From Escherichia coli (lineage in GTDB: Bacteria; Pseudomonadota; Gammaproteobacteria; Enterobacterales; Enterobacteriaceae): DNA of 64,000 nt. The translations under genes were made by a program, and so were the position numbers. Within the stretch, counting starts at the first letter, position 1; each line of letters opens with the position of its first letter. The stretch lies in the NCBI RefSeq assembly GCF_003334315.1, contig NZ_QOWR01000005.1; one strand, given 5' to 3'. Under the pieces are notes generated by a model. The model was given only the letters and a program-made list of their open reading frames with translations, did not search any database and was not told the origin of the DNA. Shown here piece after piece: positions 1,507 to 59,948 of this stretch.

Positions 1507-4500
1507 ATGAAAAAGTTACGCGTAGCCGCCTGCATGCTAATGCTGGCGCTGGCAGGGTGCGACAACAACGATAACGCGCCAACAGCGGTGAAAAAAGATG
1601 CGCCTTCTGAAGTTACTAAAGCGGCCTCTTCAGAAAACGCGAGTTCAGCAAAACTCTCCGCGCCAGAGCGACAAAAACTGGCACAACAGAGTGCCGGTAA
1701 GGCGCTGACATTGCTGGATCTCTCTGAAGTCCAACTTGATGGTGCAGCCACGCTGGTGCTGACGTTCTCCATCCCTCTCGACCCGGATCAGGATTTCTCA
1801 CGCGTTATTCATGTCGTCGATAAAAAAAGCGGCAAAGTGGATGGTGCCTGGGAGCTGTCAGATAATCTTAAAGAGCTGCGTTTACGCCACCTCGAACCGA
1901 AACGTGATTTGATCGTTACTATTGGCAAGGAGGTCAAAGCACTCAACAACGCAACCTTCAGTAAAGATTACGAAAAAACTATAACTACCCGCGACATCCA
2001 ACCCAGCGTCGGTTTTGCCAGCCGTGGTTCGCTGCTGCCTGGTAAAGTCGTTGAAGGGCTGCCGGTAATGGCGCTCAACGTTAATAATGTCGATGTTAAC
2101 TTCTTTCGCGTTAAGCCAGAATCTCTGCCAGCATTCATTAGCCAATGGGAATACCGCAATTCGCTGGCGAACTGGCAGTCAGACAAACTGCTGCAGATGG
2201 CGGATCTGGTCTACACCGGACGGTTTGATCTCAATCCTGCGCGTAACACCCGTGAAAAATTATTGCTGCCGCTGGGCGATATCAAACCGCTTCAGCAGGC
2301 GGGCGTGTATCTGGCTGTGATGAATCAGGCTGGACGTTACGATTACAGTAATCCCGCGACGCTGTTTACGTTAAGTGATATCGGCGTTTCAGCTCACCGT
2401 TATCACAATCGTCTGGATATCTTTACCCAAAGTCTGGAAAACGGCGCGGCCCAGCAAGGAATTGAAGTCTCTTTATTAAATGAGAAAGGGCAGACTCTGA
2501 CTCAGGCAACCAGTGACGCTCAGGGGCATGTGCAGCTGGAAAATGATAAAAACGCGGCATTACTGTTGGCGCGTAAAGACGGTCAGACAACGCTACTCGA
2601 TTTAAAACTTCCGGCGCTGGACTTAGCAGAATTTAACATTGCTGGCGCGCCAGGCTATAGCAAACAGTTTTTCATGTTTGGCCCGCGCGATCTTTATCGC
2701 CCGGGTGAAACGGTAATCCTCAATGGTTTGCTGCGTGATGCAGACGGTAAAGCGTTGCCCGATCAACCCATCAAGTTAGACGTGATTAAACCCGACGGGC
2801 AGGTTCTCAGGAGCGTCGTTAGTCAGCCGGAGAATGGCCTCTACCACTTAACCTGGCCACTCGATAGCAATGCGGCAACCGGTATGTGGCATATTCGCGC
2901 TAACACGGGCGATAACCAGTATCGGATGTGGGATTTCCACGTCGAAGATTTTATGCCAGAGCGTATGGCGCTGAATCTGACCGGTGAGAAAACCCCGCTT
3001 ACGCCGAATGATGAAGTGAAATTCTCCGTGGTGGGATACTACCTGTACGGTGCGCCTGCTAATGGTAATACTTTGCAAGGGCAACTTTTCCTGCGCCCAC
3101 TGCGTGAGGCTGTGTCAGCCTTACCTGGTTTTGAATTCGGCGATATAGCTGCCGAAAACCTTTCCCGCACGCTGGATGAAGTTCAGTTGACGCTGGATGA
3201 TAAAGGGCGCGGCGAAGTTTCTACAGAAAGCCAGTGGAAGGAAACGCATTCCCCATTACAGGTTATTTTCCAGGGTAGTTTGCTGGAATCGGGCGGTCGC
3301 CCGGTGACGCGCCGCGCTGAGCAGGCTATCTGGCCTGCCGATGCATTGCCGGGGATCCGTCCGCAGTTCGCCTCGAAATCGGTTTACGATTATCGTACTG
3401 ACAGCACGGTGAAACAGCCCATTGTTGATGAAGGCAGTAACGCCGCTTTTGACATCGTTTATAGCGATGCGCAAGGCGTGAAAAAAGCCGTGTCGGGCTT
3501 GCAGGTGCGCCTGATTCGCGAACGCCGCGATTACTACTGGAACTGGTCAGAAGATGAAGGCTGGCAGTCACAGTTTGATCAAAAAGATCTGATCGAAAAT
3601 GAACAAACTCTGGATCTGAAAGCGGACGAAACCGGCAAGGTCAGTTTTCCGGTAGAGTGGGGTGCTTATCGTCTGGAAGTCAAAGCGCCGAATGAAGCGG
3701 TCAGTAGTGTTCGTTTCTGGGCTGGCTATAGCTGGCAGGACAACAGCGACGGGAGCGGTGCCGTGCGACCCGACCGTGTCACGCTGAAACTGGATAAAGC
3801 CAGTTATCGCCCTGGCGATACCATTAAGTTGCATATTGCCGCGCCAACGGCGGGTAAAGGTTATGCGATGGTCGAGTCCAGTGAAGGGCCGCTGTGGTGG
3901 CAAGAGATTGATGTTCCGGCTCAAGGGCTGGATCTGACGATTCCGGTCGATAAAACCTGGAATCGTCATGATCTTTATTTGAGTACGCTGGTGGTGCGTC
4001 CTGGCGATAAATCTCGCTCCGCGACGCCAAAACGCGCGGTTGGTGTGTTGCATCTGCCGCTTGGTGATGAAAACCGTCGCCTCGATCTGGCGCTGGAAAC
4101 ACCAGCAAAAATGCGTCCCAATCAACCATTAACCGTGAAAATTAAAGCCAGCACTAAAAATGGCGAGAAGCCTAAACAGGTGAATGTGCTGGTGTCTGCC
4201 GTTGATAGTGGTGTGCTGAATATTACTGACTACGTCACGCCAGATCCGTGGCAGGCGTTCTTTGGTCAGAAACGCTATGGCGCAGACATTTACGATATTT
4301 ACGGTCAGGTTATTGAAGGTCAGGGGCGTCTGGCAGCTCTGCGTTTCGGTGGCGATGGTGATGAGCTGAAACGTGGTGGTAAACCGCCGGTCAATCACGT
4401 CAATATTGTCGCGCAGCAGGCGCTGCCGGTAACGCTCAACGAACAGGGCGAAGGCTCGGTTACACTGCCGATTGGCGATTTTAACGGTGAATTGCGCGTC

Positions 4501-22836: not shown

Positions 22837-22859
22837 TTTGACCCTGCACTATGAATGAA

Positions 22860-22892
22860 CAAAACCCTCTGTTACTACAGAGGGTTTTTTAT
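22860..22892. terminator. Bidirectional intrinsic terminator between guaA and yfgI
   Basis: AAAACCCTCTG-ttactac-CAGAGGGTTTTTT. Confidence 0.7.
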
Positions 22893-22928
22893 CTTCAAGA
22901 ATTATAGGATTGAAGTTACTAACATCGA

Positions 22929-39013: not shown

Positions 39014-39860
39014 AGGATTCCTGACGTAAATAGATAGCCCGATAACACATACTCACCAGCACTGCACCGCCGATAATATTACCCAGCATCACCGGGAGCA
39101 GATTGGCGGTAATAAAATGGCTTACCGTCAGTGCCGGAAAATTGTCTGCGCTACTGTGCGCCAGTTGCCAGAAGGGGGGAGGGGCGAAATGGCGAATGGC
39201 AATGGCGAACGGAATCACAAACAAATTGGCGATACAGTGCTCAAAGCCACTGGCGACAAACAGGGTGATGGGCAAAATCATGGCGACGATTTTGTCGCAT
39301 AACGAACGCCCGCAATAACTCATCCACAGCGCCAGGCAAACCATCAGATTGCACATAATGCCGAGGCTGACAGATTCAGTAAATGTATGATGCATTTTGC
39401 CCTCGGCGCAGTGTAAAACCGCGACTCCCCACATCGCGTTTTCACTCATCACCAGCCCGGAAAACCAGATTAACAAACTGAAACAGGCAATACCTGCCAG
39501 ATTACCGCAGGCCACCAGAAGTGCGTTAATCAGCCAAGTTCGCCAACTAATAACGCCCCGACTTTTTGCCATCACCGTCATTACCGACGAGGTGAACAGG
39601 CTGGTGCCGCAAACCGCCAGCAAAATAAAGCCGAGTGTAAAGCAAAGGCCGCCCACCAGATGGGTTAATGCCTGTGAAGACGGGGCATCGGCGATAACGG
39701 AAAGGTAAAAAGTAAATCCGATCGCCATAAACACGCCAGCGGACATCGCCATTAAAAAGACCGACACTTTACTGCGGGCAATTTTATGGGCGGCAATCCG
39801 TTCAGCGATTGCCGCTTTTCTGGCGCTCAACTGCAAGTCGAAAGAGAGTTTGTTTCTCAT
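39012..39860 (-). CDS. focB: Formate channel FocB (FNT family)
   Basis: 282 aa; last gene of the hyf operon. Confidence 0.92.
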   Translation of the reverse strand: MRNKLSFDLQLSARKAAIAERIAAHKIARSKVSVFLMAMSAGVFMAIGFTFYLSVIADAPSSQALTHLVGGLCFTLGFILLAVCGTSLFTSSVMTVMAKSRGVISWRTWLINALLVACGNLAGIACFSLLIWFSGLVMSENAMWGVAVLHCAEGKMHHTFTESVSLGIMCNLMVCLALWMSYCGRSLCDKIVAMILPITLFVASGFEHCIANLFVIPFAIAIRHFAPPPFWQLAHSSADNFPALTVSHFITANLLPVMLGNIIGGAVLVSMCYRAIYLRQES

Positions 39861-39881: not shown

Positions 39882-41894
39882 TTACAACACCTCGCGAACC
39901 GAGATCCCCAGCCGCTGCATTCGTGACAGCAGCGTGGTGCGCTTCATCCCTAATCGCGTCGCTGCGCCACGGGGCCCGGCAACAATGCCATTGGTTTCTC
40001 GCAATACCTGAACAATGCGCTGACGTTCTTCTTCGTCATTCTCTGGCGTCGTCGGGTGCAGTAACTGCGCCATTGAACTGCGAAGCGCTGAATCTTCATT
40101 TAGCGTCGGCAGTAAACGGCTTTGTCGGACATTTAGATGTAAATTCAGACTGTTACCACGAGTCAGCAGTACCGCCCGCTCAATCACGTTTTCCAGCTCG
40201 CGCACGTTGCCCGGCCAATCCCACGACATCAACTGGCGTAGTGCCTCGGTCGGAATGGCGTCAATTGCGCGATTCATATGGCGCGCCATTTTTTGCGTGA
40301 AATGTTTTGCTAAAAGAGGGATATCTTCCGGACGGTCGCGTAGCGGCGGCAATTCCAGTGGGAAGACATTCAGGCGATAAAAGAGATCGCTGCGAAACTG
40401 GCGATCTTCAACCATTTGCCACAAATCACGGTTGGTGGCGGCAATGACTCTGACATTCACCGGGATCGTTCTACTCCCGCCGAGACGCTCAATCTCCCGC
40501 TCCTGCAATACGCGCAGCAGTTTAGGCTGAAGTTCTAACGGCAGATCGCCAATTTCATCGAGAAACAACGTGCCGCCATCGGCAATTTCAAAACGACCAC
40601 GATGGGTATTAATCGCACCAGTAAACGCCCCTTTGTCATGACCGAATAACTCACTTTCCAGAAGACTGGCGGGGATGGCAGCGCAGTTGATTTTGACCAG
40701 CGGCTTGTCGCGTCGCGGGCTAAGTTGATGGATCGCTCTGGCGATCACCTCTTTGCCAGTTCCGGTTTCACCACAAATCAACACCGTACTGTCGCTCTTC
40801 GCCACAATATCTACCTGCTGGAGCAGGTCTTCCATTGCCTGGCTTTGATAGATAATGTCACCGATGCCCAGATTCGAAAGGAGCTGCTCGCTAAGCTGGT
40901 GGTTTTCTTGCTGCAAACTTTCCTGCAAATCGGTCATGCTACGCCAGGCATCGGCATTGCCAACGGCAATAGCGATGCGATCGGCTATGTGTTGTAGTAG
41001 CTGGCAGTTTTCCTCACTAAAGAGAGTGGAAGAGGTATGCGCCAGCAACAATGCACCCGGTGTATGGTTGCCAAAGGTAAGCGGTATAAGGAGCGCAGAT
41101 TCGCAGCCGTTAGATGCAAGTAAGAGTAATAACGGGTCGCGTTGCCAGAGAAACAGATCATCTGCACGGTGCGTCAAGGTCGGTTGTCGGGTTTGTAGCG
41201 TTTGTGTCAGCAATACACTTTCGCCAGGCATACAGCGTGGCAGACACGCACAATGTGAGGCAGAAAGATCGCTGCACCACAGGCTGAACTTCTCGTTCTT
41301 TCGATGATCGCCCAGTACCATACTGACTGAAGCCAGACCGAAAAAATGATGGATCTCACGAGCGACGTCAGCGATCAGATCGTCGAGATCAAGATGTGAC
41401 AGCACTGCATTAGTAATATCAACCAGTACCCGATGATGATCGCGATCTTTCTCCAGCAAACGCAGCGCCACCTGCTGTTCTTCATCATTGAGCCATGATT
41501 GCAGAACCGGGGTGATTATCCGCGCCAGCCAGTTAAACAGTGTGCAATCCTGGGAAGTAAAACGACTGCCGTGGGTGCGAATAAAGCGTAGCTCCGCCAT
41601 TCCACTACTGCCGAGAAGGACGGCGTGACGCGAATAATCGACCATCTCGCCCTGATACTCTGTTGTTGCCGTCACATCGCTGCCATCATCATGGTAGCGG
41701 TAATAGAAGTTGCTTTTGAGAACATGCAGTTCAATAAGTTGTACCGGGCTGAACGGCGGCGGCAGCGGGATGAAGGCGCGTAATAAAGACGCCTTGCCGT
41801 GTTTCTGTGCTAACCGCTCCGCGAGCATTCCGTTTACCGCTTCAATTGTTATTCCTTGTGGCGGGGCAAACATCGCCTCGTCTGACATAGCCAT
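39882..41894 (-). CDS. hyfR: Sigma54-dependent transcriptional activator HyfR
   Basis: 670 aa from the ATG at 41892-41894; central AAA+ domain ([14 protein letters not shown]), C-terminal HTH. Confidence 0.92.
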
Positions 41895-41923: not shown

Positions 41924-42337
41924 TCACGCAATTTTTCTGGCCATCAGATAGATGGCCGGTTCCTGCACAATTTCATCCAACAGATGAATGAATTGAATGC
42001 TACGCGCCTGCCACACAGACGTCGCGTCATCCGCCAGTGGCGCGAATGCCCGGGTCAACAGGGCGGTGTGGCTGGCGTCAATAACAATCTCACCAAAAGT
42101 CATCACCCCCAGCATCTTACGTCGGGCTTGCTCCTCTTCGACCAGTGCAAGCCAATCTTCGTATTCCGTCAGTGGGCAGCGGAAGGCGACATTCAGACAA
42201 TCAATCACGCCAACGTGATGGCCGATAGCTAGCGAGTAATACATTACCTGAGAGCTGTGTTCCGGCATCTCGTCGCTACTGGCGACAAACTTTTTTCGCA
42301 GCGTCCAGAAAACAATTTCCCCGCACTCTTCAGTCAT
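41924..42337 (-). CDS. hyfJ: Hydrogenase-4 maturation/assembly component HyfJ (HycH-like)
   Basis: 137 aa from the ATG at 42335-42337; overlaps the hyfI 3' end by 8 nt. Confidence 0.88.
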
Positions 42338-43088
42338 GTAACCCCCGGAGTACGCGAAAGAGTTGCTGAACGATACTATTGAGACGTGGATCGTCGGCAT
42401 CGCGCAACCAGGTGTTAACCCGATTTCCTGTAGGATCGTCGCTTAAATGGCGCAGGAGCCGATCGCAAATTTCTCGCCCCTGACGATAGCCCGCCAGCCG
42501 CCGCGCTTCTCGCTCAATGGCGATACGCTGTGATGGCGGGATCTGCGGCCACAACGGTTGCATAGTCACCCCGGTGGGATCGCGATAATCCACAGCGTGA
42601 ATCTTCTGTTGCAGCAAACCGAGCGCCACGGCGAAACCGTGAATGGTGGCGGCCGGTGTTGGCGGGCAGCCGGGGATCCAAACATCAATGGGGACAATGG
42701 TGTCGCTACCGCCCCAGACGCTGTAGAGATCGTGGAAAATACCGCCGCCGACACCGCACGCGCCGTAGGAAACACAAATTTTATGATCGGGGGCAGACTC
42801 ATACGCCCGAAGTGCAGGCATACGCATCGCCCGGGTGACTGCGCCAGTAAATAACAAAATATCGGCGTGACGCGGTGATGAAACAACCTTAATGCCAAAA
42901 CGTTCTGCGTCGAATACTGGTGTAATGGCAGCAAAAATTTCGATTTCACAGGCGTTGCAGCCGCCGCAATCGATGCGATAAACGTAAGCCGAGCGACGGA
43001 TATCCTGTAGCAAATGCCGCTTCATCTTTTGCGTTTGCTCGTCCAGCGTGATGGGCTGGCTGACATATTGTGTAAGCACTGGACTCAT
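42330..43088 (-). CDS. hyfI: Hydrogenase-4 small subunit (NuoB-like)
   Basis: 252 aa; Fe-S Cys motif CGGCNACE...CPGCPP. Confidence 0.93.
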
Positions 43089-43630
43089 AGCTGCTCCTTA
43101 GCCACCAGCAGTACATCTGTATCGTCGTTGATCAGCGTCGCGCGTTGTTTGCATTCCGGGCAGACGCTCGCTTGCGCCCACAACATTTCGCGGTTTTGTG
43201 GCGCATTTTGTTGCTGTGCTAACAATTCAGCAGCCAGTGCGATGGTTTTTTGCGGGGCAAACGGGCGTTCGCAACGGCTGCAACGTTGTAGATGGAACGT
43301 CGCGCGGGTATAGAGATCGGCTTTATTGGTGACGGTCAGTTCAAAGTTATTGGTAAGCTGGATGGCTCTGGTCGGGCACACTTCTTCACAACGTCCGCAG
43401 TAAATACAACGCCCCAGATAGAGCTGCCAGGTGCGCGAATTTTGCTGGTCGTCGGTCTGGATAGTCAGCGCATTTGCCGGACAAGCACAGGCGCAGGCAC
43501 CGCAGGCAATACATTGGCTGGGCATCAGGTCCGGTTTTCCGCGAAAGCCAGGGCTGACCTCCAGTGGCGCGAAGGGATATTTCACCGTCGCGGTTCCGGC
43601 GCGCATAATAGTTTTCAGTAACTTCAGCAT
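43085..43630 (-). CDS. hyfH: Hydrogenase-4 ferredoxin subunit (2x 4Fe-4S)
   Basis: 181 aa; [11 protein letters not shown] and [12 protein letters not shown] motifs. Confidence 0.93.
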
Positions 43631-43639
43631 CTTCTGTCC

Positions 43640-45307
43640 TTACTTCAGCGGCGAACGGTTACGATCAATGCCGTAGCGTTCGATCTCTTTATACGGCACG
43701 GTTTTTGACTGGCGCTTGCGCACATCTACCAGCGTCACACGGTCGGTACAGGAGTAGCAGGGATCAAGGCTACCGATAATCAGCGGTGCGTCAGAAACGG
43801 TATTGCCGCGCAGCATGTAACGCAACACCGGCCAGTTGGCGTAGGTGGCGGCACGGCAGCGCCAGCGGAACAATTTTTGGTTATCACCGAGCATGCTCCA
43901 GTGCACGTCTTCACCGCGTGGCGCTTCAACAAAGCCCAGCGCGAATGCGTGAGGTTTATAGCTAAAGCCTTCGGTCAGCAGTGGGGTATCCGGCATGTTG
44001 TCGAGGGCAAATTCCAGCATTGCCAGCGAATCAAACGTCTCTTTGACACGGACCATCACGCGGGAGAAAACATCGCCGCCGGTAAAGGTAAACAGTGTTT
44101 TTGGAATATTGCCGTAGTCGGCGTAGGGGTGATCAAAGCGCAAATCACGGGCGATTTGTCGGTCGAGAATGCCAATGCCCTGAGTGCGTTGTTCCATATT
44201 CGGCGTAGCAAGCAGCATCTCTACCAGCTCCGACACGTCGGCGCGCATCTCGCGCACCAGTTTCAGCGTTTGCAGACGTTGCTCTTTGAGAATATCGCGG
44301 CGAACACCACCAATCAGATTCAGACCGTAGGTTTTACGCGACCCGATCAGCAATTCCGCCATCGTCATCGACTTTTCCCGCACGCGGAAAAATTGCATAA
44401 AGCCGGTATCAAAACCAACGAAATGGCAGGAGAGGCCAAGGTTAAGCAAATGACTGTGTAGCCGTTCGACTTCCAGCAGAATCGAGCGAATAGTATGTGC
44501 TCGTTGCGGCACCTCAATCCCCAGTGCATTTTCAACCGAATTGGTATAGGCCACACTGTGGGCAAAACCGCAAATCCCACACACGCGGTCCGATAAGAAG
44601 GTCACTTCGTTGTAGCCCATCCGCGTTTCTGCCAGTTTCTCCATGCCGCGATGGACATAAAACAGGCGGTAATCAGCATCGACAATTTGCTCGCCATCCA
44701 CAAACAAGCGGAAGTGACCCGGTTCATCGGAGGTGATATGCAGCGGGCCGACAGAGATCACCCGCGCATCGCTGTTGCCCTCATTGATAAACGGATACGT
44801 TTCGGAATCAGTCGTCGGTTCAGGGCGCAGTCGATAATCCATCGCATCTTTGCGCAGCGGATGCATATCTTCCGGCCAGTCATCGGGCAACACCAGGCGA
44901 CGCTGATCCGGCAGGCCAACCGGAATCAGCCCGTACATATCGCGAATTTCTCGCTCGCCCCAGACCGCGGCAGGGACGCGCGGTGTGACTGACGGAAACT
45001 CCCGACTGTCGGCATCGACCAGCGCCTTCACCACAATCCAGCATTTTTCGGCCCCTTCCATTGAAAGGGCATAATAAACCGCGTAATGACCGTTAAGTGT
45101 CCGCTCGTCGTTGCCAAACAGGACCGGAAGCCAGCCATCATGTTGATAATAAAGATACTGTACAACGTCAGGCAGCAGATTGATTTTCACCGTAATGGTG
45201 ACCTGTTCAGGCGTTTGTCGCTCTTCATCCAGCACCGCGCCGGGGAACTGCGTTTTCAGGGCGGCGAGAATCGCTTCGCCACGATTTGACGATGAATTAA
45301 CGTTCAC
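43640..45307 (-). CDS. hyfG: Hydrogenase-4 large [NiFe] catalytic subunit
   Basis: 555 aa from GTG at 45305-45307; N-terminal RxCGxC (DRVCGICG) and C-terminal DPCYSC Ni-binding motifs. Confidence 0.93.
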
Positions 45308-46877
45308 TGTGTTTCTCCGAAACAGATGCGGTGCCTGAAGGCAAAAAATCATGCCAGGTGCTACGTTGTGCAGGCAGATCGTGCGTCCCTGAGAGGACTA
45401 TAGTGGAAGCGCCCGCCAGGATCCTGATGACAGGTTGTGGAATATGCGTTCCCATCGCCAGCATCATGACCAGCAGAATCACCATTGGCGAGGTGGTCAA
45501 CCAGCCGAGATCACCCCGGTTAACGGCCTGCGGCGGTTTCGCCATTAACACCCGCGCAGCCATCCGTACCAGGCCCGCCAGCACCAGCGTTAACAGCAAT
45601 AACAGCAGGACGATAATCAGCAGGTGATTACGTGCCAGTCCGGCGGTAATGGTCATAAATTCGCTAAGAAAAATGTTGAAGGGCGGCATCCCTGCCAGCG
45701 CCAGCGCACCGCCGCCAAACAGCACGGCGGTAAATGGCATGATTTTGAGCATCCCACAGACGACGTTGAGATCGCGCGTGCCGTACTTGAGCAGTACATT
45801 GCCGGAACCGCAGAACAGCAGCGTTTTTGCCAGACTGTGGTTTAAGATGTGCAGCAGCGCGGCAAAAATTCCCAGCGGCCCGCCAATGCCTAGCTCCACC
45901 GCGACCAGCCCCATGTTCTCCACGCTGGAGTACGCCAGCAGACGCTTAATGTCCCGCTGTACCAGAATGAAAAATGCCGCCACGGCAACCGACAACATGC
46001 CGAAGATGAGCAACAACCGGTTGGGGAAATCGCTGCCGATGGCTTGGCAAATAATGATGTAATAGCGAATCAGCACCAACAGCGCGCAGTTCAGCACTAC
46101 GGCGGAGAGCAGGGCGCTGACCGGACTCGGCGCTTCACTGTGAGCATCCGGCAGCCAGGCGTGCATGGGAAATAGCCCGGTTTTGGTACCAAAGTCAATT
46201 AGCAAAAACACAAAGGCCAACAGCATTAATGTTGGGTCAAGCAAGGACGATTGCTTAAGAACCTCGCTCCAGAATATCGCCATTTCTGCCTGCGGCATAA
46301 CGCTGGCGGTGTTGGCGTATACCAGCACGGTACCGAACAGACCAAAAGCGACACCAACAGTACAAATAATGATGTACTTCCATGCAGCTTCCAGCGATGA
46401 ACGCTGACCGTAAATGCCTACCAGAAACGCCGAGCTTAAGGTGGTGGCTTCGATCGCCGCCCACATCACAATCAGGTTATTGCTGGTAACAACCAGCAGC
46501 ATGGTGAACAAAAACAGATGGAAGAAACCGTAGTAATCGCACAGCGTAACGGGTGAAAGCTCGCCGTGTGCCACTTCATGACGCATGTAGCCAATCGAGT
46601 AAATACCGGTGAGAAAGCCAATCACACCAAGAATGGCGAGGAACAAACCGCCCAGACCATCAATATGAAGCCACAGTCCCGCAGCGAATATTTCTCCTGC
46701 ATCAGCGGCAGTTTGGACCACCCAGAGTGCCAGAATCAGCAGCAGTGTGATCCCTAAGCTATGTAATACGGTCACCGTGCGAGTCGCAGAAAGTCTCCGT
46801 TTCCGGCAGGCAAAACAGAGCAGCGAAAAAAGCAGCGGCGTGAGCAGGAGTAAAGCGAACATCACAGAATAACTCAT
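45297..46877 (-). CDS. hyfF: Hydrogenase-4 membrane subunit (NuoL/M/N antiporter-like)
   Basis: 526 aa; multi-TM. Confidence 0.93.
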
Positions 46878-46881
46878 CTCA

Positions 46882-47532
46882 TTATCCCTTCAGCGCGGTC
46901 AAGTTGTTCACGTCCAGCGTGCCGTGGGTACGCCATATTTTTCTTGCCAGTAACACCATCACAATGACGGCGAAGATGGCGTCGGTAGCGATACCTATTT
47001 CCACCAGTTCCGGTGCTCGCCAGGCAAGAAGCGCCAGCACCAGATGGGAGCCGTTTTCCATCAGGCAGTAACCAAAAATTTGCCGCAGGATATTGCGCTG
47101 GCTGACAATGCACAGCAGGCCAAGCAGAAAATGACCTAACGCTACCGCCAGCGCCGGTTTCAGCCCGGTAGCCATCGGTAGCTTCACGGGCTGAACGACA
47201 AATGCGCAAAGCAGGACAATTAACGCCGCGAGCAGTGCCATCATTGCCGGACCGAATAACGCTTTTTCCGGGATGTTCTGGGGAATATTTCGTGCAGCGT
47301 AAGTCATGATTAACGGTACCAGCAGCACTTTGGTGATAAAGGCGCTGGCGGACCAGATCAGCAGTTGCTCTGCGGCGAACAGGCACGAGAGGGTGGCGAA
47401 AATAGACACCAGCACCAGTGACTGGCAGGCGTAAAATCCGCATGACAGGCGATAGCTTTTGACGCTAATCACAAACAGTGATGTCAGCATCATCAGTCCC
47501 GCCAGATTATTTACGATCATAGAACCGGTCAT
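46882..47532 (-). CDS. hyfE: Hydrogenase-4 membrane subunit HyfE
   Basis: 216 aa; multi-TM. Confidence 0.92.
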
Positions 47533-47543
47533 TCATCATCTCC

Positions 47544-48982
47544 TTACTGCAACCAGGTCGCGGCGATTACGCTGGAAATCAGCGACATCACAATCAGTAC
47601 AATCAACACCAGGCGCATTGACCCTGGCAGCGGTGCGGCATCGGCGACGGCCTCGCTCGGTTTGCCAGGCACGACGCGACCAAACCAGCGAATAAACCAG
47701 GCGAAACTGGCGACCGATTCAATCATCAGCAGAATCATGGCGGGCAGCAGGATCCAGTACTCCACTGACAACGCAAAACCGGCAGCAAACAGCGGGAATT
47801 TACTGAAGAAGCCGTTGAACGGCGGCACGCCGGTAATTGCCAGCGCTGCCACGCAGAAACCCACGCCAGGCAACGGCAGGGTGTGCAATACGCCACGCAG
47901 ACGCGGCAACAAGCGCGTGCCGCAGCTGTAACTCAGCGCACCTGCTACAAGGAAAAACAGGCTTTTAGCGAACGCGTGGTTGACGATGTAGGCGATGCTA
48001 CCCTCCAGCGCCAGCCGCGAGCCGAAGATGGAGAGCGACAAGCCGAAGAACATCCAGCCAAGTTGAGTGATGGTCGACCAGGCCAGCAACCGCTTCATAT
48101 CCTGCTGTGGCAAATACATCAGAAATCCATAAAGAATGGTGACCAGGGCCATGACCATGCCAACGCCGCCAATCACATGCGGGATATTGCCGCCGTCGAT
48201 AATGGCGCGGGCAAAAATGTAAACGCCCACTTTCACCATCGATGCGGCGTGGAGATAGGCGCTGATCGGTGTTGGCGCTTCCATTGCGTCCGGTAGCCAC
48301 GCTTGCATCGGTAGCTGGGCCGATTTCCCCCACGCGGCAAACAGGATGCCGCCATAAACCAGATAACGTGCGTCGCCGTGTAACTCGCTCATCGCGCTAA
48401 GCGCAAACGTTCCGGTCTGCAAAAACAGCGTGGCGGCGGCAAGATACAACCCCAACGAGCCGATATGAGTGATAAGTAACGCTTTTAGTGCTGAACGCTG
48501 CGCTTTATCGCTCTGGTAATAACTGATCAACGCCCAGGAGCAGCCGCCCGTAATTTCAAAAAACAACAACTGACCGAGCAGCGTCGAGGAGAGTACCAGT
48601 CCCGCCATCGCGCCGATAAACACCAGCAAAAATGCGTAATAACGATTCGTGCCGTTATGCGGGTGTTCGCGATTTTTATCCGTCAGATAACCCGTGGAGT
48701 AGATCGTGACCAGCAAACCGAGAAACACCACCACAAACAGAATCAGCGTACTCACGCGATCAATGACCAGGCCAAACAATGCCACATCCCCCACGTTGAC
48801 CAACGTCAACGTGACGGCAACTTTATCGGCCTGATAAAACGCGGAGATCAGCGACAACATGCACAGCGTGGTCAGTGCGGCGAACAAAACCCCCATTCGG
48901 CGGCCCGACGTTGTGGCGAAAACGAAACGACCAGTGCGCCGATAAAAGGCAGCATTAACGTCGTCAGAGCAAGATTTTCCAT
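47544..48982 (-). pseudogene. hyfD: hyfD (hydrogenase-4 antiporter-like membrane subunit) with a -1 frameshift near 48886-48895
   Basis: ATG at 48980-48982 with a GGAG SD opens MENLALTTLMLPFIGALVVSFSPQRRAAEWG, which hits a stop 4 codons after the C5 run at 48890-48894 (G5 on the coding strand). The other frame continues MGVLFAALTT... for 450 aa. Adding one G restores a 479-aa ORF, the K-12 length from memory. Confidence 0.75.
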
Positions 48983-48998
48983 ATTCCGTCAGTGCTCC

Positions 48999-49945
48999 TT
49001 ACAGACCGGTTAACCAGAAGACCCATGCAAGCGCAGCAAGGCTGAAGCCAAGCCAGGTCACATGGTGAATGAGTAAAAAACGCCCGCATGCCAGCGTGTT
49101 TTCTGCGATTGAAGCCAGTACAAAAATCAGCAAAACCTTGAGCAGCGTAACGACAAGTGAAGTCAGCAGGCAGGTGAGAGAAAGTTCTTGCGCGCGCCCA
49201 AAGGGCAGAAACAGGGCCACAAACAGTGCTGCCATCACGACCTGTTTCAGCCCCAGCCCCCATTTCGCCAACGCCAGCCCGGCACCGGAATATTCGGTCA
49301 GCGGGCCTTCCTGTAATTCCTGTTCTGCTTCAGCAACATCAAAGGGAATTTTTCCCATCTCTATGAAGCAGGCAAAACCACAGGCCAGTAACGCCAGTAC
49401 GGTGGTTAGCGGCGAGTTCCAGCCCATCGCCAGCGTATTGCTGATCATCTCGATATGCGTGGAATCCGCTATCAGCGCCAATACCAGCAGTGAGAGAATG
49501 AGCATGGGTTCGACCAGAATGCCGAGCGTCAACTCGCGACTGGCACCGACTCCCGCAAACGGGCTTCCGGTATCCAGCCCTGAAAGAGCAAAGAAAAAAC
49601 GAAACAGGGCAAGAAGATAGATAAGGGTGATCAGATCGCCGCCGCCCGCAAAAGGGAAACGGTAATAAACAGTGGTAGGGCCATCGCCAGCACCAGCATG
49701 CTGCTGATTAATACCCACGGCATCAGGCGGAACATCAGACCTGAAGATATAGGCGCAACTTCCTGGCGTTTAAACAGTTTGTGGATATCGCGATAATCCT
49801 GCCAGATCTCCGGCCCGCGGCGGGAGTGCATACGCGCGCGTATCTGCCGGGAAATACCCGTAAAAAGTGGGGTTAGCATCAGCAGAATCACGGCCTGTGC
49901 TAACGCAAAAATGACCAGATATCCGTCGCAAAGAGTTTGTCTCAT
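48999..49945 (-). pseudogene. hyfC: hyfC (hydrogenase-4 NuoH/HycD-like membrane subunit) with a -1 frameshift near 49650-49680
   Basis: The N-terminal frame MRQTLCDGY...ALPLFITVS terminates 7 codons later; a second frame carries ...PFAGGGDLITLIYLL... to the stop at 48999. The span is 947 nt, so one added base gives 948 nt = 315 aa, the K-12 length from memory. Best junction: cgtttCCCtttt (CCC vs CCCC). Confidence 0.75.
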
Positions 49946-49955
49946 GGTGATTTCC

Positions 49956-51974
49956 TTAGACGGCAATAGCGATTAGCAGCACAACCAGTGCGGCGACCAC
50001 ATACAGGCAATAGAGACGAAAGTCGCCGCTTTGCAGATGCTGTATTTCTTTGGCCAGCCGTTGGGTGGCGCTCACGATGGGGCGGATCACCCGCTCATCC
50101 CAGAAGGGTTCTGTGCTCTGAGCCCTGGCGGTGACGTGCGCAAGACCTTTATTTAGCCTCAGCGTAGGGTCGAGCTGTTGTCGTAGACGAAATAGCGCAG
50201 AAAAGACCACACGCAGCGGCTGCATCACGCCATTGCCTGACGGGGCCATCGCATTTTCCCAGCTGTAGCCGCATGCCCAGGCATCTCCTGTGCGACGAAA
50301 CGCTGCGCGGCGCGAACGACACCACAGCCAGTAAAGGCCAGGCAGCAAAGGCATCGCCAGTAGTAACAGCAACAGTAATGAAGGAGTGACCCGTGTATGA
50401 AACGTGCCGGGTACAAGTGCTATTCCGCTGGCGACAGTGACGGGAGGGGTATCGGTAAACGCATGGGCAATATGCATTATCTTCGGTGCCAGCCAACTGG
50501 CACTAAGCGCAATTAATACGCAGAGTGCCGCGAGCAGTAGCATGGCGACGATCATCGTATTTGGCACTTCCTGTGCCTCTTCAGCGTGTGTACTGCGCGG
50601 CGCACCACAGAAAGTAATACCGTACATTTTTACGAAGCACATTACTGCCAGCCCACCAGTGACTGCCAGCATTACCATAGCAATAGGACCCGCAAGTTGT
50701 AGCGCTACGGCTTCCACACGACTTAGTGAGAACAGCGACTGCCAGGTGTACCATTCGCTGATAAAATCATTCAGCGGAGGAAGGGCTGATATCGCCAGGC
50801 AACCAATCAGGCATGCTGCGGCTGTCCACGGCATCCGTTTCGCCAGTGCCCCCATTTTTTCCATGTCGTGGGTATGCAAACGCGAAATAATCGCGCCCGC
50901 GCCGAGAAATAGCAGCCCTTTGAACAGCGCATGGTTGAGCAGATGAAACAGTGCGCCGAGCAGTCCAACCACGGTGAGCAGCGGGTCGTGCAGTGACAGA
51001 CCGACCATCGCCACACCGACCGCCAGCAAAATAATGCCGACGTTTTCGACGGTACTCCAGGCCAGTAGCCGTTTGATATCCTGTTCCGCCAGCGCATACA
51101 GCACGCCCAGGAGCGCGGAGATTGCGCCGATCGCCATCACCAGAATGCCCCACCACAGCGGCAAACCCGTTTGCGCCAGCAGATCCATCGCCACTTTCAG
51201 GATGCCGAAAATACCGATTTTGACCATTACGCCAGACATCAACGCTGAAGCGTGCGATGGTGCGGCAGGGTGAGCGCGCGGCAACCAGCTGTGCAACGGC
51301 ATCATCCCGGCTTTCGCGCCAAAACCGAAAAAGGCCAGCAGGAACACCGCCGACGCCAGCCCCGGAGAAAGTGAAAGCGTGCGGAAACTGGCAAAATCGA
51401 GGCTGCCGCTTTCGCGCCCCATCAGCAAGAAGGCGATCATTATCAGCACCGATCCGGCGTGGGCGATAAAAAAGTAGAGCATGCCAGCGTTGATCGACGT
51501 TTTATCCTGCCTGGCAATGACCAGAAACCAGGAAGACAGCGACATCATTTCAAACAGCACGATGAACCAAAAAGCGTTGTCCATCACCAGCAGGGCAACC
51601 ATCGATGCGATGAAAAGATTCATAAAGAAGCCCATCGCCGCCGCGCCTTTGCCCTCGTATTCGCGCATATAAGTCAATGAATAGAGCGAACAAACCACCA
51701 CCAGCAAGGAGATAACCAGCACCATAAATGCCGAGAGGCTATCCATTCGCAGGGTTAAATCGGCAAAGTCAAAAGGGGTGGCAAAATGGGCGACTAAAGT
51801 TACACCAGCATGTAATTGCGTAATTCCGCTGATGATGCCAATCACGCCGCCCACCAGCGATGTGATGCTGGAAAGCTTAATAGCCAGTCTGTCCAGACCG
51901 AGTAAAAACAGCGAAGCCAGACTGGCAAACAGATAGAGGATCAGCGACCAGGTTAATAATTGCAGGGCATCCAT
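49956..51974 (-). CDS. hyfB: Hydrogenase-4 membrane subunit (NuoL-like antiporter)
   Basis: 672 aa; multi-TM. Confidence 0.93.
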   Translation of the reverse strand: MDALQLLTWSLILYLFASLASLFLLGLDRLAIKLSSITSLVGGVIGIISGITQLHAGVTLVAHFATPFDFADLTLRMDSLSAFMVLVISLLVVVCSLYSLTYMREYEGKGAAAMGFFMNLFIASMVALLVMDNAFWFIVLFEMMSLSSWFLVIARQDKTSINAGMLYFFIAHAGSVLIMIAFLLMGRESGSLDFASFRTLSLSPGLASAVFLLAFFGFGAKAGMMPLHSWLPRAHPAAPSHASALMSGVMVKIGIFGILKVAMDLLAQTGLPLWWGILVMAIGAISALLGVLYALAEQDIKRLLAWSTVENVGIILLAVGVAMVGLSLHDPLLTVVGLLGALFHLLNHALFKGLLFLGAGAIISRLHTHDMEKMGALAKRMPWTAAACLIGCLAISALPPLNDFISEWYTWQSLFSLSRVEAVALQLAGPIAMVMLAVTGGLAVMCFVKMYGITFCGAPRSTHAEEAQEVPNTMIVAMLLLAALCVLIALSASWLAPKIMHIAHAFTDTPPVTVASGIALVPGTFHTRVTPSLLLLLLLAMPLLPGLYWLWCRSRRAAFRRTGDAWACGYSWENAMAPSGNGVMQPLRVVFSALFRLRQQLDPTLRLNKGLAHVTARAQSTEPFWDERVIRPIVSATQRLAKEIQHLQSGDFRLYCLYVVAALVVLLIAIAV

Positions 51975-52591
51975 TAGCGTTGCTCCTGAGTGAGGGAAAG
52001 GGGATCCTCCCCGCCATTGGCAAACCAGCTTGCGGCAAGGCGCTGTTTTTCTTTCATCTGACGTTGCAGGCTATCGTCGGTGATCAGCCGTAACGCCTGA
52101 TTCGGGCAAGCGCGAACGCAGGCCGGACCTTCTGGCAAGAAATCACACAGGTCGCATTTCACCGCGACGGTCTGGACACCCGGTTCCCAGCGCAGCAACG
52201 CATGTTGGGGCAGCACGTTTTCTTCGCCGTTTTTGAGTGAGCCTTCAGCCTGAAAAACATATTGCGCATGGGCATTCACCGGACGGCTTCCTGAAGCGCT
52301 GATTGCGCCAAATGGGCAGACCACGGCGCAAAGCTTGCAGCCAATACAGAGGCTTTCGTTGAGTTGGATCGCATCATCCCTCTGAGAGATGGCATTGACC
52401 GGGCAGACCTGCAGGCAAGGGGCTTCCTCACAGTGATGACACACGACAGGGGCAGTGATTGTTGACGTCTTCGCCAGGGCCAGGCGCGGGTGTTGCTGTA
52501 AACCTTGCGTTTTATGCACGTCCGAACAGGCAGCGAGACAGGTATTACATCCTGTACACCACAGTGGTTCGGCCACCACAAAGCGGTTCAT
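51974..52591 (-). CDS. hyfA: Hydrogenase-4 Fe-S electron-transfer subunit
   Basis: 205 aa from the ATG at 52589-52591; multiple CxxCxxCxxxCP ferredoxin motifs; stop overlaps the hyfB start (TAATG). Confidence 0.92.
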   Translation of the reverse strand: MNRFVVAEPLWCTGCNTCLAACSDVHKTQGLQQHPRLALAKTSTITAPVVCHHCEEAPCLQVCPVNAISQRDDAIQLNESLCIGCKLCAVVCPFGAISASGSRPVNAHAQYVFQAEGSLKNGEENVLPQHALLRWEPGVQTVAVKCDLCDFLPEGPACVRACPNQALRLITDDSLQRQMKEKQRLAASWFANGGEDPLSLTQEQR

Positions 52592-52632: not shown

Positions 52633-52648
52633 TGCATAAAGGATGCCA
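52633..52648 (-). promoter_or_regulatory. Sigma54 (-24/-12) promoter of the hyf operon
   Basis: Minus-strand TGGCATCCTTTATGCA (GG and GC with consensus spacing) about 45 bp upstream of the hyfA ATG; the activator hyfR is encoded in the same operon. Confidence 0.6.
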
Positions 52649-57932: not shown

Positions 57933-59948
57933 ATGGCTGAACTGACTGCGCTTCACACATTAACAGCGCAAATGAAACGTGAAGGGATCCGCCGCTTACT
58001 GGTGTTGAGCGGGGAAGAGGGTTGGTGTTTTGATCATGCGCTTAAGTTACGTGATGCCTTACCTGGCGACTGGCTGTGGATTTCGCCGCAGCCAGATGCT
58101 GAAAACCACTGTTCTCCCTCGGCACTACAAACTTTACTTGGGCGCGAGTTCCGGCATGCGGTATTCGACGCCCGCCACGGCTTTGATGCCGCTGCCTTTG
58201 CCGCACTTAGCGGAACGTTGAAAGCGGGAAGCTGGCTGGTTTTGTTACTCCCTGTATGGGAAGAGTGGGAAAACCAACCTGATGCCGACTCGCTGCGCTG
58301 GAGTGATTGCCCTGACCCTATTGCGACGCCGCATTTTGTCCAGCATTTCAAACGCGTACTTACGGCGGATAACGACGCTATCCTCTGGCGGCAAAACCAG
58401 CCGTTCTCGTTGGCGCATTTTACTCCCCGTACTGACTGGCACCCCGCGACCGGCGCACCACAACCAGAACAACAGCAACTCTTACAGCAGCTACTGACCA
58501 TGCCGTCGGGCGTGGCAGCGGTAACTGCTGCGCGTGGGCGCGGTAAATCGGCGCTGGCAGGGCAACTCATTTCTCGTATTGCGGGCAGTGCGATTGTCAC
58601 CGCGCCCGCAAAAGCGGCAACGGATGTACTGGCACAATTTGCGGGCGAGAAGTTTCGCTTTATTGCGCCGGATGCCTTGTTAGCCAGCGATGAACAAGCC
58701 GACTGGCTGGTGGTCGATGAAGCCGCAGCCATACCTGCGCCGTTGTTGCATCAACTGGTATCGCGTTTTCCTCGAACGTTGTTAACCACTACGGTGCAGG
58801 GCTACGAAGGCACCGGACGTGGTTTTTTGCTGAAATTTTGCGCTCGCTTTCCGCATTTACACCGTTTTGAACTGCAACAGCCGATCCGCTGGGCACAGGG
58901 ATGCCCGCTGGAAAAAATGGTTAGTAATGCACTGGTTTTTGACGATGAAAACTTCACCCATACACCACAAGGCAATATCGTCATTTCCGCATTTGAACAA
59001 ACGTTATGGCGAAGCGAGCCAGAAACGCCGTTAAAGGTTTATCAGTTATTGTCTGGTGCGCACTACCGGACTTCGCCGCTGGATTTACGCCGGATGATGG
59101 ATGCACCAGGGCAATATTTTTTACAGGCGGCTGGCGAAAACGAGATTGCCGGAGCGCTGTGGCTGGTGGATGAGGGGGGATTATCTCAACAACTCAGTCA
59201 GGCGGTATGGGCAGGTTTTCGTCGCCCGCGGGGTAATCTGGTGGCCCAGTCGCTGGCGGCGCACGGCAGCAATCCACTGGCGGCGACATTGCGTGGACGG
59301 CGGGTCAGCCGGATAGCAGTTCATCCGGCTCGTCAGCGGGAAGGCACAGGGCGGCAACTTATTGCTGGTGCTTTGCAATATACGCGTGACCTCGACTATC
59401 TTTCGGTGAGTTTTGGTTACACCGGGGAGTTATGGCGTTTCTGGCAACGCTGCGGTTTTGTGCTGGTGCGAATGGGTAATCATCGTGAAGCCAGCAGCGG
59501 TTGCTATACGGCGATGGCGCTGTTACCGATGAGTGATGCGGGTAAACAGCTGGCTGAACGTGAGCATTACCGTTTACGTCGCGATGCGCAAGCTCTCGCG
59601 CAGTGGAATGGCGAAATGCTTCCTGTTGATCCACTAAACGATGCCATCCTTTCTGACGACGACTGGCTTGAACTGGCCGGTTTTGCTTTCGCTCATCGTC
59701 CGCTATTAACATCGTTAGGTTGCTTATTGCGTATGCTACAAACCAGTGAACTGGCATTACCGGCGCTGCGTGGGCGTTTACAGAAAAACGTCAGCGACGC
59801 GCAGTTATGTACCACACTTAAACTTTCAGGCCGCAAGATGTTACTGGTCCGTCAGCGGGAAGAGGCCGCGCAGGCGCTGTTCGCACTTAATGATGTTCGC
59901 ACTGAGCGTCTGCGCGATCGCATAACGCAATGGCAATTTTTTCACTGA
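57933..59948 (+). CDS. tmcA: tRNA(Met) cytidine acetyltransferase TmcA
   Basis: 671 aa; helicase-like Walker A (ARGRGKS) plus GNAT region. Confidence 0.92.
   Translation: MAELTALHTLTAQMKREGIRRLLVLSGEEGWCFDHALKLRDALPGDWLWISPQPDAENHCSPSALQTLLGREFRHAVFDARHGFDAAAFAALSGTLKAGSWLVLLLPVWEEWENQPDADSLRWSDCPDPIATPHFVQHFKRVLTADNDAILWRQNQPFSLAHFTPRTDWHPATGAPQPEQQQLLQQLLTMPSGVAAVTAARGRGKSALAGQLISRIAGSAIVTAPAKAATDVLAQFAGEKFRFIAPDALLASDEQADWLVVDEAAAIPAPLLHQLVSRFPRTLLTTTVQGYEGTGRGFLLKFCARFPHLHRFELQQPIRWAQGCPLEKMVSNALVFDDENFTHTPQGNIVISAFEQTLWRSEPETPLKVYQLLSGAHYRTSPLDLRRMMDAPGQYFLQAAGENEIAGALWLVDEGGLSQQLSQAVWAGFRRPRGNLVAQSLAAHGSNPLAATLRGRRVSRIAVHPARQREGTGRQLIAGALQYTRDLDYLSVSFGYTGELWRFWQRCGFVLVRMGNHREASSGCYTAMALLPMSDAGKQLAEREHYRLRRDAQALAQWNGEMLPVDPLNDAILSDDDWLELAGFAFAHRPLLTSLGCLLRMLQTSELALPALRGRLQKNVSDAQLCTTLKLSGRKMLLVRQREEAAQALFALNDVRTERLRDRITQWQFFH

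Follow-up and report, generated by a model that had tools for sequence, protein, structure and literature searches.

Two single-base frameshifts, in hyfD and hyfC, shared across Escherichia coli genomes in a widely decaying hydrogenase-4 operon

The neighbouring genes hyfC and hyfD, for membrane subunits of the rarely used hydrogenase 4, each lack one base of the corresponding K-12 gene in the E. coli DNA analysed here (a stretch of 64,000 nucleotides, referred to below as the window). With a probability of roughly 90%, we regard both as genuine, vertically inherited frameshift pseudogenes that were broken in the order hyfD then hyfC within a widely decaying operon. Read from its native start, hyfC closes prematurely at codon 105 of its 315 and hyfD at codon 37 of its 479, and both lesions are heritable alleles. 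The frameshifted state of the two genes is already flagged in public annotation and is ordinary gene decay.

The window is collinear with K-12 MG1655 (NC_000913.3, 2589787–2653590) across 63.8 kb, and only three indels separate the two sequences: the frameshift in each of hyfC and hyfD, and one of 5 bp between genes at 62911. We mapped the K-12 coding sequences onto the window and translated them; 51 of the 53 that lie wholly within it are full length, and hyfC and hyfD are the only ones interrupted, which bears out the initial annotation in naming these two as the sole broken genes. The first 25 kb of the window have their best matches, at 99.9%, in phylogroup-A-like strains, with no 100% match among complete genomes.

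The locus belongs to the E. coli hyf operon (hydrogenase 4/formate hydrogenlyase-2), with genes that correspond one to one to the 12 cistrons of K-12 MG1655 (b2481–b2492) in the same order, hyfABCDEFGHIJR-focB, between bcp and yfgO. All hyf features described here lie on the minus strand. The structural genes hyfA–hyfJ occupy 41924–52591, with hyfA, B, E, F, G, H, I and J full length, and hyfR (39882–41894) and focB (39012–39860) are intact as well; the initial annotation had listed hyfR, hyfG and hyfI as intact, and the translations extend this to every hyf gene other than the two pseudogenes. Over 18 kb, the K-12 and window loci are collinear with 109 mismatches (~99.4% identity) and two 1-nt gaps only. 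Ten genes are thus full length in both, whereas K-12 carries a run of four C (C4) in hyfC and of six G (G6) in hyfD and encodes complete HyfC (315 residues) and HyfD (479 residues). The intergenic region upstream of hyfA contains one substitution relative to K-12 and a sigma-54-type −24/−12 element, TGGCATCCTTTATGCA (52633–52648), which is the same in K-12 and is the putative hyf promoter.

The hyfC pseudogene, coding for a HycD/NuoH-like membrane subunit of hydrogenase 4, spans 48999–49945 and has 947 nt versus 948 in K-12. From the alignment and codon context, the frameshift lies at 49654–49656, where the coding strand has a run of three C (C3) instead of C4 (TTTCCCTTTT versus TTTCCCCTTTT), so that the codons GTT TCC CCT TTT of K-12 read GTT TCC CTT TTG in the window. 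The truncated frame (49631–49945) comprises 97 native and seven aberrant residues, 104 in total, and ends with a TGA at 49633–49631. This exact 104-residue fragment is called on 631 contigs in NCBI, JGI, ENA and Logan. The mechanical list of open reading frames also includes a 239-codon frame with a GTG start (48999–49718), in register with native hyfC and running over its 3' two-thirds; it spans positions 125–325 alone of the 337-position NuoH profile and is probably not translated.

HyfC has its counterparts in HycD of formate hydrogenlyase-1 (Hyc; PDB 7z0s and 7z0t, chain D) and in NuoH of complex I. Residues 11–312 of K-12 HyfC, the intact orthologue of the window gene, align with residues 3–305 of HycD in the solved formate hydrogenlyase complex (7z0s_D; E = 9e-95), which identifies the product as a HycD/NuoH-type subunit and places the frameshift, at residue 97/98, in the conserved core of the subunit. 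The comparison with HycD tells what the loss of HyfC removes, not how a broken hyf locus behaves. Hyc is not known to have a counterpart of HyfD, HyfE or HyfF.

The hyfD pseudogene (47544–48982) codes for a NuoL/MrpA-like antiporter subunit and has 1439 nt versus 1440 in K-12. Alignment and codon context place its frameshift at 48890–48894, a coding-strand run of five G (G5) where K-12 has G6, and the codons GAA TGG GGG GTT TTG of K-12 become GAA TGG GGG TTT TGT. The truncated frame (48872–48982) contains 31 native and five aberrant residues, 36 in total, before a TGA at 48874–48872. The initial annotation had restored 948 and 1440 nt by adding one base to each gene and had given 315 and 479 residues for the K-12 proteins, and all of these figures agree with K-12; its hyfD site was exact, and its hyfC site, a CCC near 49655–49660, was close. 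In a pairwise alignment of the hyfC–hyfD region with K-12 MG1655, we counted 34 substitutions and exactly two single-base gaps.

The deletion in hyfD also puts an ATG in frame (W30 to M), and the list of open reading frames accordingly includes a 450-residue frame at 47544–48896 that lacks the first 29 residues of HyfD, its first transmembrane helix (TM1). This product belongs to the HyfD equivalog of NCBIfam, NF005097 (cut-off 430 bits), with 774 bits over positions 31–480 of 480; K-12 HyfD scores 811 bits over positions 1–480. Profile positions 1–30, missing from the shorter product, align with the N-termini of NuoL and MrpA. At least 1,000 contigs (NCBI, ENA, JGI and Logan) have a called protein with exactly this 450-residue sequence, which is named as a protein in many draft annotations.

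We determined how far the two alleles extend among 5,426 complete E. coli genomes. The hyfC allele C3 is present in 305 of the 4,287 that carry hyf (~7%; exact 51-mer), and the hyfD allele G5 in 997 of 4,279 (~23%; exact 48-mer). About 77% of hyf-bearing genomes lack the G5 match and about 93% lack the C3 match, and those inspected have G6 and C4. At least 40 complete genomes match the window at 100% over the whole 2,701-bp hyfC–hyfD region, and the hosts and countries they come from are unrelated. Alignment with K-12 and other E. coli, which the initial annotation had proposed for counting tract lengths, therefore gives C4 and G6 in K-12 and C3 and G5 in hundreds of genomes. The lesions that had been described for this one strain are real, but they are not private to it; they are lineage-wide.

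The G5 allele sits on a recognisable haplotype (48876–48955), with a coding-strand A at 48955 and another at 48876 where K-12 has T and G, respectively. Both flanking SNPs accompany G5 in 965 of the 997 carriers (exact 91-mer), in agreement with the haplotype table, which indicates a single origin rather than repeated slippage. The same linkage bears on whether the missing bases are homopolymer miscalls in sequencing or assembly, with the real genes intact. Both changes are one-nucleotide contractions of homopolymers, the classic error type, and some related assemblies have more private 1-nt indels that are possibly errors. However, random miscalls could not yield linkage to two neighbouring SNPs, nor would they place identical alleles in 305 and 997 independent complete genomes and both alleles in BL21(DE3) and E. 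coli B. The runs are also only three to six bases long, and the 63.8 kb compared with K-12 contain no other coding indel. The changes are thus neither confined to one assembly or technology nor unlinked to neighbouring polymorphism, and we consider miscalls extremely improbable. The initial annotation had left decay and artefact side by side; since the alleles recur base for base, the former stands and the latter falls.

The relationship between the two lesions, which lie ~760 bp apart, was sampled in the 40 identical genomes, in E. coli B and BL21(DE3), and in ten distinct genomic contexts. Some genomes, such as VG888-46E9 and 120899, have G5 but not C3, and C3 is accompanied by G5 in nine of the ten contexts. 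The single context with C3 and without G5 (L011) has K-12-type flanking SNPs around its G6 and therefore looks like a recombination patch rather than a product of slippage. In the contexts sampled, C3 nearly always sits on the G5 haplotype, and this arrangement suggests that hyfD probably broke first and hyfC later on the same haplotype.

The pairing of C3 with G6 in L011, together with the location of both lesions within G and C runs, could also be read as phase variation, in which the homopolymers act as contingency tracts that reversibly switch hyf. Phase-variable contingency tracts are typically seven or more bases long. The hyf tracts are very short (3–6 nt) and only two lengths were seen at each site; moreover, tract length follows the SNP haplotype in 965 of 997 carriers, which is the opposite of what rapid reversible switching would give, and the K-12-type neighbouring SNP in L011 points to recombination rather than slippage. 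With neither a long tract nor a length independent of haplotype, a contingency locus is hardly credible here.

The inherited-pseudogene reading would involve the loss of one base from each short homopolymer (C4 to C3 and G6 to G5), presumably by replication slippage. G5 would have arisen once, on the haplotype described above, and C3 later on that already broken haplotype, in the phylogroup-A lineage to which E. coli B/BL21(DE3) and the window belong. Regarding the ancestral run lengths, an exact-pattern scan of the GTDB species representatives gave no hyf match and one hit overall, in a Rhodobacteraceae MAG, which we rejected as a chance match because it has no similarity to hyf. The empty scan likely reflects an E. 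coli representative genome without hyf. We took the full-length state to be ancestral from the coverage of the family profiles and from the PDB alignments (NuoL and MrpA N-termini).

Both C3 and G5 are present in the widely used strains E. coli B and BL21(DE3) (NC_012971.2); in ATCC 8739 and E. coli C, at least hyfD is broken in the same way. The NCBI pipeline PGAP calls both hyfC and hyfD 'frameshifted' in genomes with the identical sequence, and the BL21(DE3) pseudogenes ECD_RS25295 and ECD_RS12350 have C3, G5 and the same PGAP label. B and BL21(DE3) also share with the window the SNP adjoining G5 and a nearly identical hyfC–hyfD haplotype; the B lineage differs in one additional synonymous SNP 14 nt upstream of the C run, in Q479* at the end of hyfD, and in lacking the R287C substitution found in the window hyfC. 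A full-text search of the accessible literature found no paper that describes the hyfC and hyfD frameshift alleles, in B/BL21(DE3) or elsewhere, or that warns of a broken chromosomal hyf operon in these hosts. In a study of the hydrogenase deficiency of BL21(DE3) (PMC3149613), hyf appears solely in the reference list.

Compared with K-12, hyfD of the window has 15 synonymous and one nonsynonymous difference (L10M). This near lack of drift points either to a lesion that is recent compared with the divergence of the haplotypes or to continued selection on the downstream reading frame. The second option would require that recoding or a restart keeps HyfD partly functional, so that G5 is not a null allele. 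If the P-site tRNA-Gly slipped by −1, from GGG onto the overlapping GGG, the K-12 sequence W-G-V-L would be restored; alternatively, ribosomes that stop at the premature TGA might restart 22 nt before it, at the in-frame ATG (48896), which would result in the 450-residue HyfD without TM1. The high frequency of G5 among hyf-bearing genomes (23%) is in line with this proposal, as is the 15-to-1 ratio. If true, strains with an intact hyfC may have a low-level or altered hydrogenase-4 membrane arm, and the near absence of nonsynonymous drift in hyfD would be accounted for.

The signals for such a rescue are nevertheless lacking. There is no X XXY YYZ heptamer, since in the hyfD context, G GGG UUU U, the A-site UUU (tRNA-Phe) is unable to re-pair on GUU, and the predicted folding of the 90 nt downstream is no more stable than that of shuffled sequence (z = +1.83 for hyfD and −0.06 for hyfC). 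The family profiles are unshifted, that is, the frameshift arrangement is not conserved among orthologues. Without a slippery heptamer or a downstream structure, we rejected a programmed −1 ribosomal frameshift of the dnaX or insertion-sequence type. A Shine-Dalgarno-like motif is present at every native hyf start checked, but none precedes the internal hyfD ATG or the internal hyfC GTG, and the 29 residues that a restart would omit form a conserved transmembrane helix common to NuoL and MrpA. Among the 60 G5 genomes listed, approximately 22 have an annotation name that was tied to a 208-bp deletion in hyfD wherever checked, and other G5 genomes have additional frameshifts, which is unexpected if the reading frame were maintained. 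Finally, a rescue of hyfD would leave hyfC broken, as its context, U UCC CUU, permits no re-pairing slip. From these sequence features, we judge it very unlikely that G5 hyfD retains function.

Loss of hyf in E. coli extends well beyond the two frameshifts. The hyf region is missing from 1,128 of the 5,426 complete genomes, a 1-bp deletion in hyfB is found in 1,257 of them and the 208-bp deletion in hyfD in 908, and hyfABCDEFGHIJ are absent from group B2 (PMC2617782, Table 5). Further lesions include a 216-bp deletion in hyfD, an IS element inserted in hyfJ, and stop codons within hyfA, hyfC and hyfF. Like the state seen in the window, these are predicted loss-of-function states of the same operon, but the mutations and their positions are different and none of them is present in the window. 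Seven of ten sampled genomes have at least one flagged hyf lesion; the operon is intact in the other three and also in K-12 and O55:H7.

The ratio of nonsynonymous to synonymous differences between the window and K-12, which is not polarised by lineage, is 29:48 for the hyf structural genes and 51:202 for the other 43 genes (Fisher p = 0.002). Two genes outside hyf, tmcA and yfhM, likewise have high nonsynonymous counts. A corresponding test within the frameshift clade was dropped as biased; the sampled loci had been chosen because their neighbouring proteins differ, which enriches for nonsynonymous variants. We infer that hyf is poorly constrained in E. coli, with relaxed selection as the cause.

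Selection may instead have favoured inactivation of the Hyf membrane arm, and several independent lesions would have reached high frequency for this reason. Between them, hyfB, hyfC and hyfD have four distinct lesions, each carried by 305 to 1,257 genomes; the G5 haplotype is nearly invariant among its carriers, as expected from a recent spread, and group B2 has lost the operon by deletion. In a genome collection of clinical and livestock origin, however, over-sampled lineages can give such frequencies through clonal expansion and hitch-hiking as well, and a substantial share of strains still has an intact operon, as in three of the ten sampled genomes, K-12 and O55:H7. Adaptive loss therefore seems to us possible but unlikely, and we favour ordinary decay of inherited frameshift alleles.

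With both frames closed early, native-start translation would end after 104 codons in hyfC and 36 codons in hyfD, and neither a full NuoH/HycD-like HyfC nor a full antiporter-like HyfD would therefore be made. The HycD/NuoH subunit connects the catalytic arm to the membrane arm in formate hydrogenlyase-1 and in respiratory complex I. From the predicted truncations, we can soundly infer that hydrogenase 4 would not be assembled into a complete K-12-type complex, even though the lesions spare the catalytic genes, the regulator and the promoter region.

The hyfC and hyfD frameshifts should consequently be left in the sequence, with both genes labelled as pseudogenes, and should not be 'corrected'. 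Studies of hydrogenase 4 or formate hydrogenlyase-2 that use E. coli B, BL21(DE3), ATCC 8739 or E. coli C as hosts cannot depend on the chromosomal hyf operon. Our results are descriptive population genomics drawn from existing annotation and imply no new mechanism. Since several different lesions each affect from hundreds to over 1,000 complete genomes, strains with an intact K-12-type hyf operon appear to be a minority of the species, which is relevant to why a physiological role for hydrogenase 4 in E. coli has long been hard to assign.

The locus is the E. coli hyf operon (hydrogenase 4, or formate hydrogenlyase-2) by gene order and identity. On the minus strand, hyfA (52591..51974), hyfB (51974..49956), hyfC (49945..48999), hyfD (48982..47544) and hyfE (47532..46882) are followed by hyfF to hyfJ, hyfR and focB, and the interval 47544–49945 falls within this operon. 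We aligned hyfC–hyfD with 100-nt flanks to K-12 MG1655 (NC_000913.3) and found 34 substitutions and exactly two gaps of 1 nt. As the initial annotation had proposed, each gene is one base short: hyfC has 947 nt versus 948 nt in K-12, and hyfD has 1439 nt versus 1440 nt. In hyfC, GTT TCC CCT TTT of K-12 reads GTT TCC CTT TTG, a coding-strand C4 run shortened to C3 at 49654–49656 (earlier placed near 49655–49660). In hyfD, GAA TGG GGG GTT TTG reads GAA TGG GGG TTT TGT, and the G6 run is reduced to G5 at 48890–48894, precisely where it had been predicted. The K-12 proteins have 315 (HyfC) and 479 (HyfD) residues, the lengths given in the initial annotation. Translation from the native starts gives 104 residues for HyfC (97 native plus LLRAAAI) and 36 for HyfD (31 native plus FCSPH), each followed by a stop.

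The window as a whole aligns collinearly with K-12 2589787–2653590; the 63.8 kb contain 346 mismatches and three indels, namely the two frameshifts and, between genes at 62911, one of 5 bp. Fifty-one of the 53 K-12 CDS wholly inside the window are full length on translation; hyfC and hyfD are the only interrupted ones, which bears out the claim that no other gene is broken. Upstream of hyfA, one base differs from K-12 and a sigma-54-type element, TGGCATCCTTTATGCA, is kept.

Elsewhere in the window, the indel at 62911, the only one besides the frameshifts, is a deletion relative to K-12 (K-12 2590876–2590880) that adjoins the tiny gene ypfM. The first ~200 bases (1–203) have no collinear K-12 alignment; a weak match (82%) points to the timR/ryfA small-RNA locus, which lies downstream of sseA. 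Nonsynonymous differences from K-12 are high for their neighbourhood in tmcA (57933–59948; 22 versus 28 synonymous) and yfhM (1507–6468; 16 versus 37 synonymous).

The initial annotation had kept two readings open, genuine decay and a homopolymer artefact, and suggested comparing run lengths in K-12 and other E. coli genomes. By megablast, the 2,701-bp hyfC–hyfD region is present in 4,298 of 5,426 complete E. coli genomes. At least 40 genomes, isolated in several countries from river water, humans, dogs, pigs, poultry, frogs and sediment, are 100% identical to it from end to end; in them the NCBI pipeline PGAP calls hyfC (947 nt) and hyfD (1439 nt) ‘frameshifted’ pseudogenes. A 51-mer around C3 is found exactly in 305 of the 4,287 hyf-bearing genomes matched, and a 48-mer around G5 in 997 of 4,279. 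Extending the G5 probe to a 91-mer, so that it takes in one SNP 61 nt upstream of the run and another 14 nt downstream, leaves 965 exact matches among 4,293 genomes. One local haplotype thus holds 97% of G5 alleles (965 versus 997), a linkage that neither sequencing errors nor recurrent slippage could yield. Both alleles also occur in E. coli B and BL21(DE3) (RefSeq NC_012971.2), annotated likewise. In a collection of 15 billion proteins, the exact 104-residue HyfC fragment is called on 631 contigs and an exact 450-residue HyfD ORF (see below) on at least 1,000. Recurrence of the alleles in independent complete genomes and the linkage of G5 to one haplotype exclude the artefact; genuine decay, which the pseudogene calls also support, is the reading that stands. 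The lesions are real and heritable, and they are almost certainly inactivating.

One of the 100% matches in hyfCD, strain W5-6 (L008), carries an ~18-kb island after guaA (L008 4707–22822) that is absent from the window and K-12; the corresponding position in the window is ~22837–22928, between guaA and yfgI. The island encodes an integrase, RepA, TraJ/TrbJ/TrbL, an ABC-three-component system and ComF-like genes. The ppx gene of W5-6 is flagged as frameshifted; that of the window is intact.

HyfC is a HycD/NuoH-type subunit. Its K-12 form matches HycD from the formate hydrogenlyase structure (7z0s_D) over residues 11–312 (E = 9e-95), and the break, at residue 97/98, interrupts a stretch conserved in this alignment. 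HyfD is an antiporter-like subunit of the NuoL/MrpA type. The G5 deletion puts an ATG at 48896 in frame, opening a 450-residue ORF (W30 replaced by M) that spans 31–480 of the 480-position HyfD equivalog NF005097, whereas K-12 HyfD spans 1–480. The missing N-terminus aligns with those of NuoL and MrpA and thus represents an ancestral transmembrane helix. The ORF (47544–48896) is named ‘hydrogenase 4 subunit HyfD’ in many GenBank drafts (e.g., UniRef A0A167B9B0_ECOLX), inconsistent with the frameshifted pseudogene of RefSeq PGAP. It scores above the NF005097 cut-off, which may explain why some drafts name it as a normal protein.

Could either gene be rescued by frameshifting or restart? An X XXY YYZ heptamer is absent at both sites, and the 90 nt that follow each are predicted to fold no more stably than dinucleotide-shuffled controls (hyfD, z = +1.83; hyfC, z = −0.06). 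At the hyfD G run, a −1 slip of tRNA-Gly in the P site only would recreate WGVL exactly, so that leakiness of hyfD is conceivable; no equivalent re-pairing slip exists at the hyfC site. Every native hyf start checked has a Shine–Dalgarno-like motif, and none precedes the internal hyfD ATG or the hyfC GTG that opens a 239-residue 3′ ORF. Approximately 22 of the 60 G5 genomes listed bear the name ‘hydrogenase 4 subunit D’, which in every case checked accompanies a second, 208-bp hyfD deletion, and further G5 genomes have additional frameshifts. These second lesions argue against maintenance of the ORF. The sole observation favouring maintenance is the scarcity of nonsynonymous divergence: between the window and K-12, hyfD has 15 synonymous changes and only one nonsynonymous change. 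The G5 haplotype is near-invariant among its carriers, which suggests that the spread of G5 was simply recent compared with the split between the two haplotypes. Judged from sequence, there is a small chance that the common G5 allele is leaky.

G5 is approximately threefold commoner than C3 and is seen without it, for example in VG888-46E9 and 120899. VG888 shares the window haplotype across hyfD and 3′ hyfC, but its C run is C4 and the 5′ part of its hyfC belongs to another haplotype. Of ten distinct contexts in which the 104-residue HyfC fragment is encoded, G5 is present in nine. The tenth, locus L011, pairs G6 with the neighbouring SNP of K-12 type and has an in-frame deletion of 216 bp; its G6 segment looks like a recombination patch. 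From this nesting, rather than a dated phylogeny, the simplest history is that hyfD was broken first and hyfC later, in an already defective operon.

Damage to hyf extends well beyond these alleles. A 1-bp hyfB deletion, which shortens CC to C at K-12 2602408 (GCCAGTTTC[C]GCACG), is found exactly in 1,257 of 4,193 hyf-bearing complete genomes and is annotated as frameshifted (seen in loci L005, L011, L025, L027, L028, L029 and L033); the window retains CC. Since it occurs alongside both G5 and G6, recombination has shuffled the lesions. The 208-bp hyfD deletion removes K-12 hyfD nt 758–965, and its junction shows a 3-nt microhomology, GCG. It is present in 908 complete genomes, STEC of O103, O111 and O121 among them, on G5 and on G6 backgrounds (seen in L004, L006 and L028); PGAP names these copies ‘hydrogenase 4 subunit D’, without a gene symbol. 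The 216-bp deletion (nt 371–586), between 8-nt direct repeats GCGCGATG, occurs in L011 (AP045064.1) and L027 (strain 1506), and in strain 1506 PGAP takes the product as a valid protein despite the loss of 72 antiporter-core residues. Sampled genomes also have internal stops in hyfA, hyfC and hyfF, and a hyfJ cut by ISVsa5. In ten genomes taken at evenly spaced ranking rows (L024–L033, all C4), seven carry at least one PGAP-flagged hyf lesion and three are fully intact, a small sample with a wide confidence interval; besides these stops and the hyfJ insertion, the flagged lesions are a hyfB frameshift and a hyfD deletion. Of the 5,426 complete genomes, 1,128 lack the 2,701-bp region, and hyfABCDEFGHIJ is reported absent in group B2 (Touchon et al. 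2009, Table 5; PMC2617782). Between the window and K-12, the nonsynonymous:synonymous ratio is 29:48 in hyf structural genes versus 51:202 in the other 43 genes (Fisher p = 0.002), and 22:22 when hyfC and hyfD are left out (p = 9e-5). Together, the common lesions, the absence of the region and this contrast indicate that hyf is weakly constrained in E. coli. The rise of the common lesions may reflect drift with clonal expansion, or selection.

A full-text literature search found no paper on the C3 or G5 alleles. A study of hydrogenase deficiency in BL21(DE3) has hyf only among its references (PMC3149613), an unrelated hyfA frameshift is reported in an O157 strain (PMC4321836), and the genome-reduced strain DGF-298 has the entire operon deleted (PMC10652928). 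RefSeq already carries both alleles as annotated lesions in BL21(DE3) and in hundreds of further genomes; they are ordinary and on public record. What remains new is the slight prospect of a leaky G5 and the possible rarity of intact hyf at the population level: as far as the small sample goes, E. coli strains with an undamaged K-12-type operon may be in the minority.
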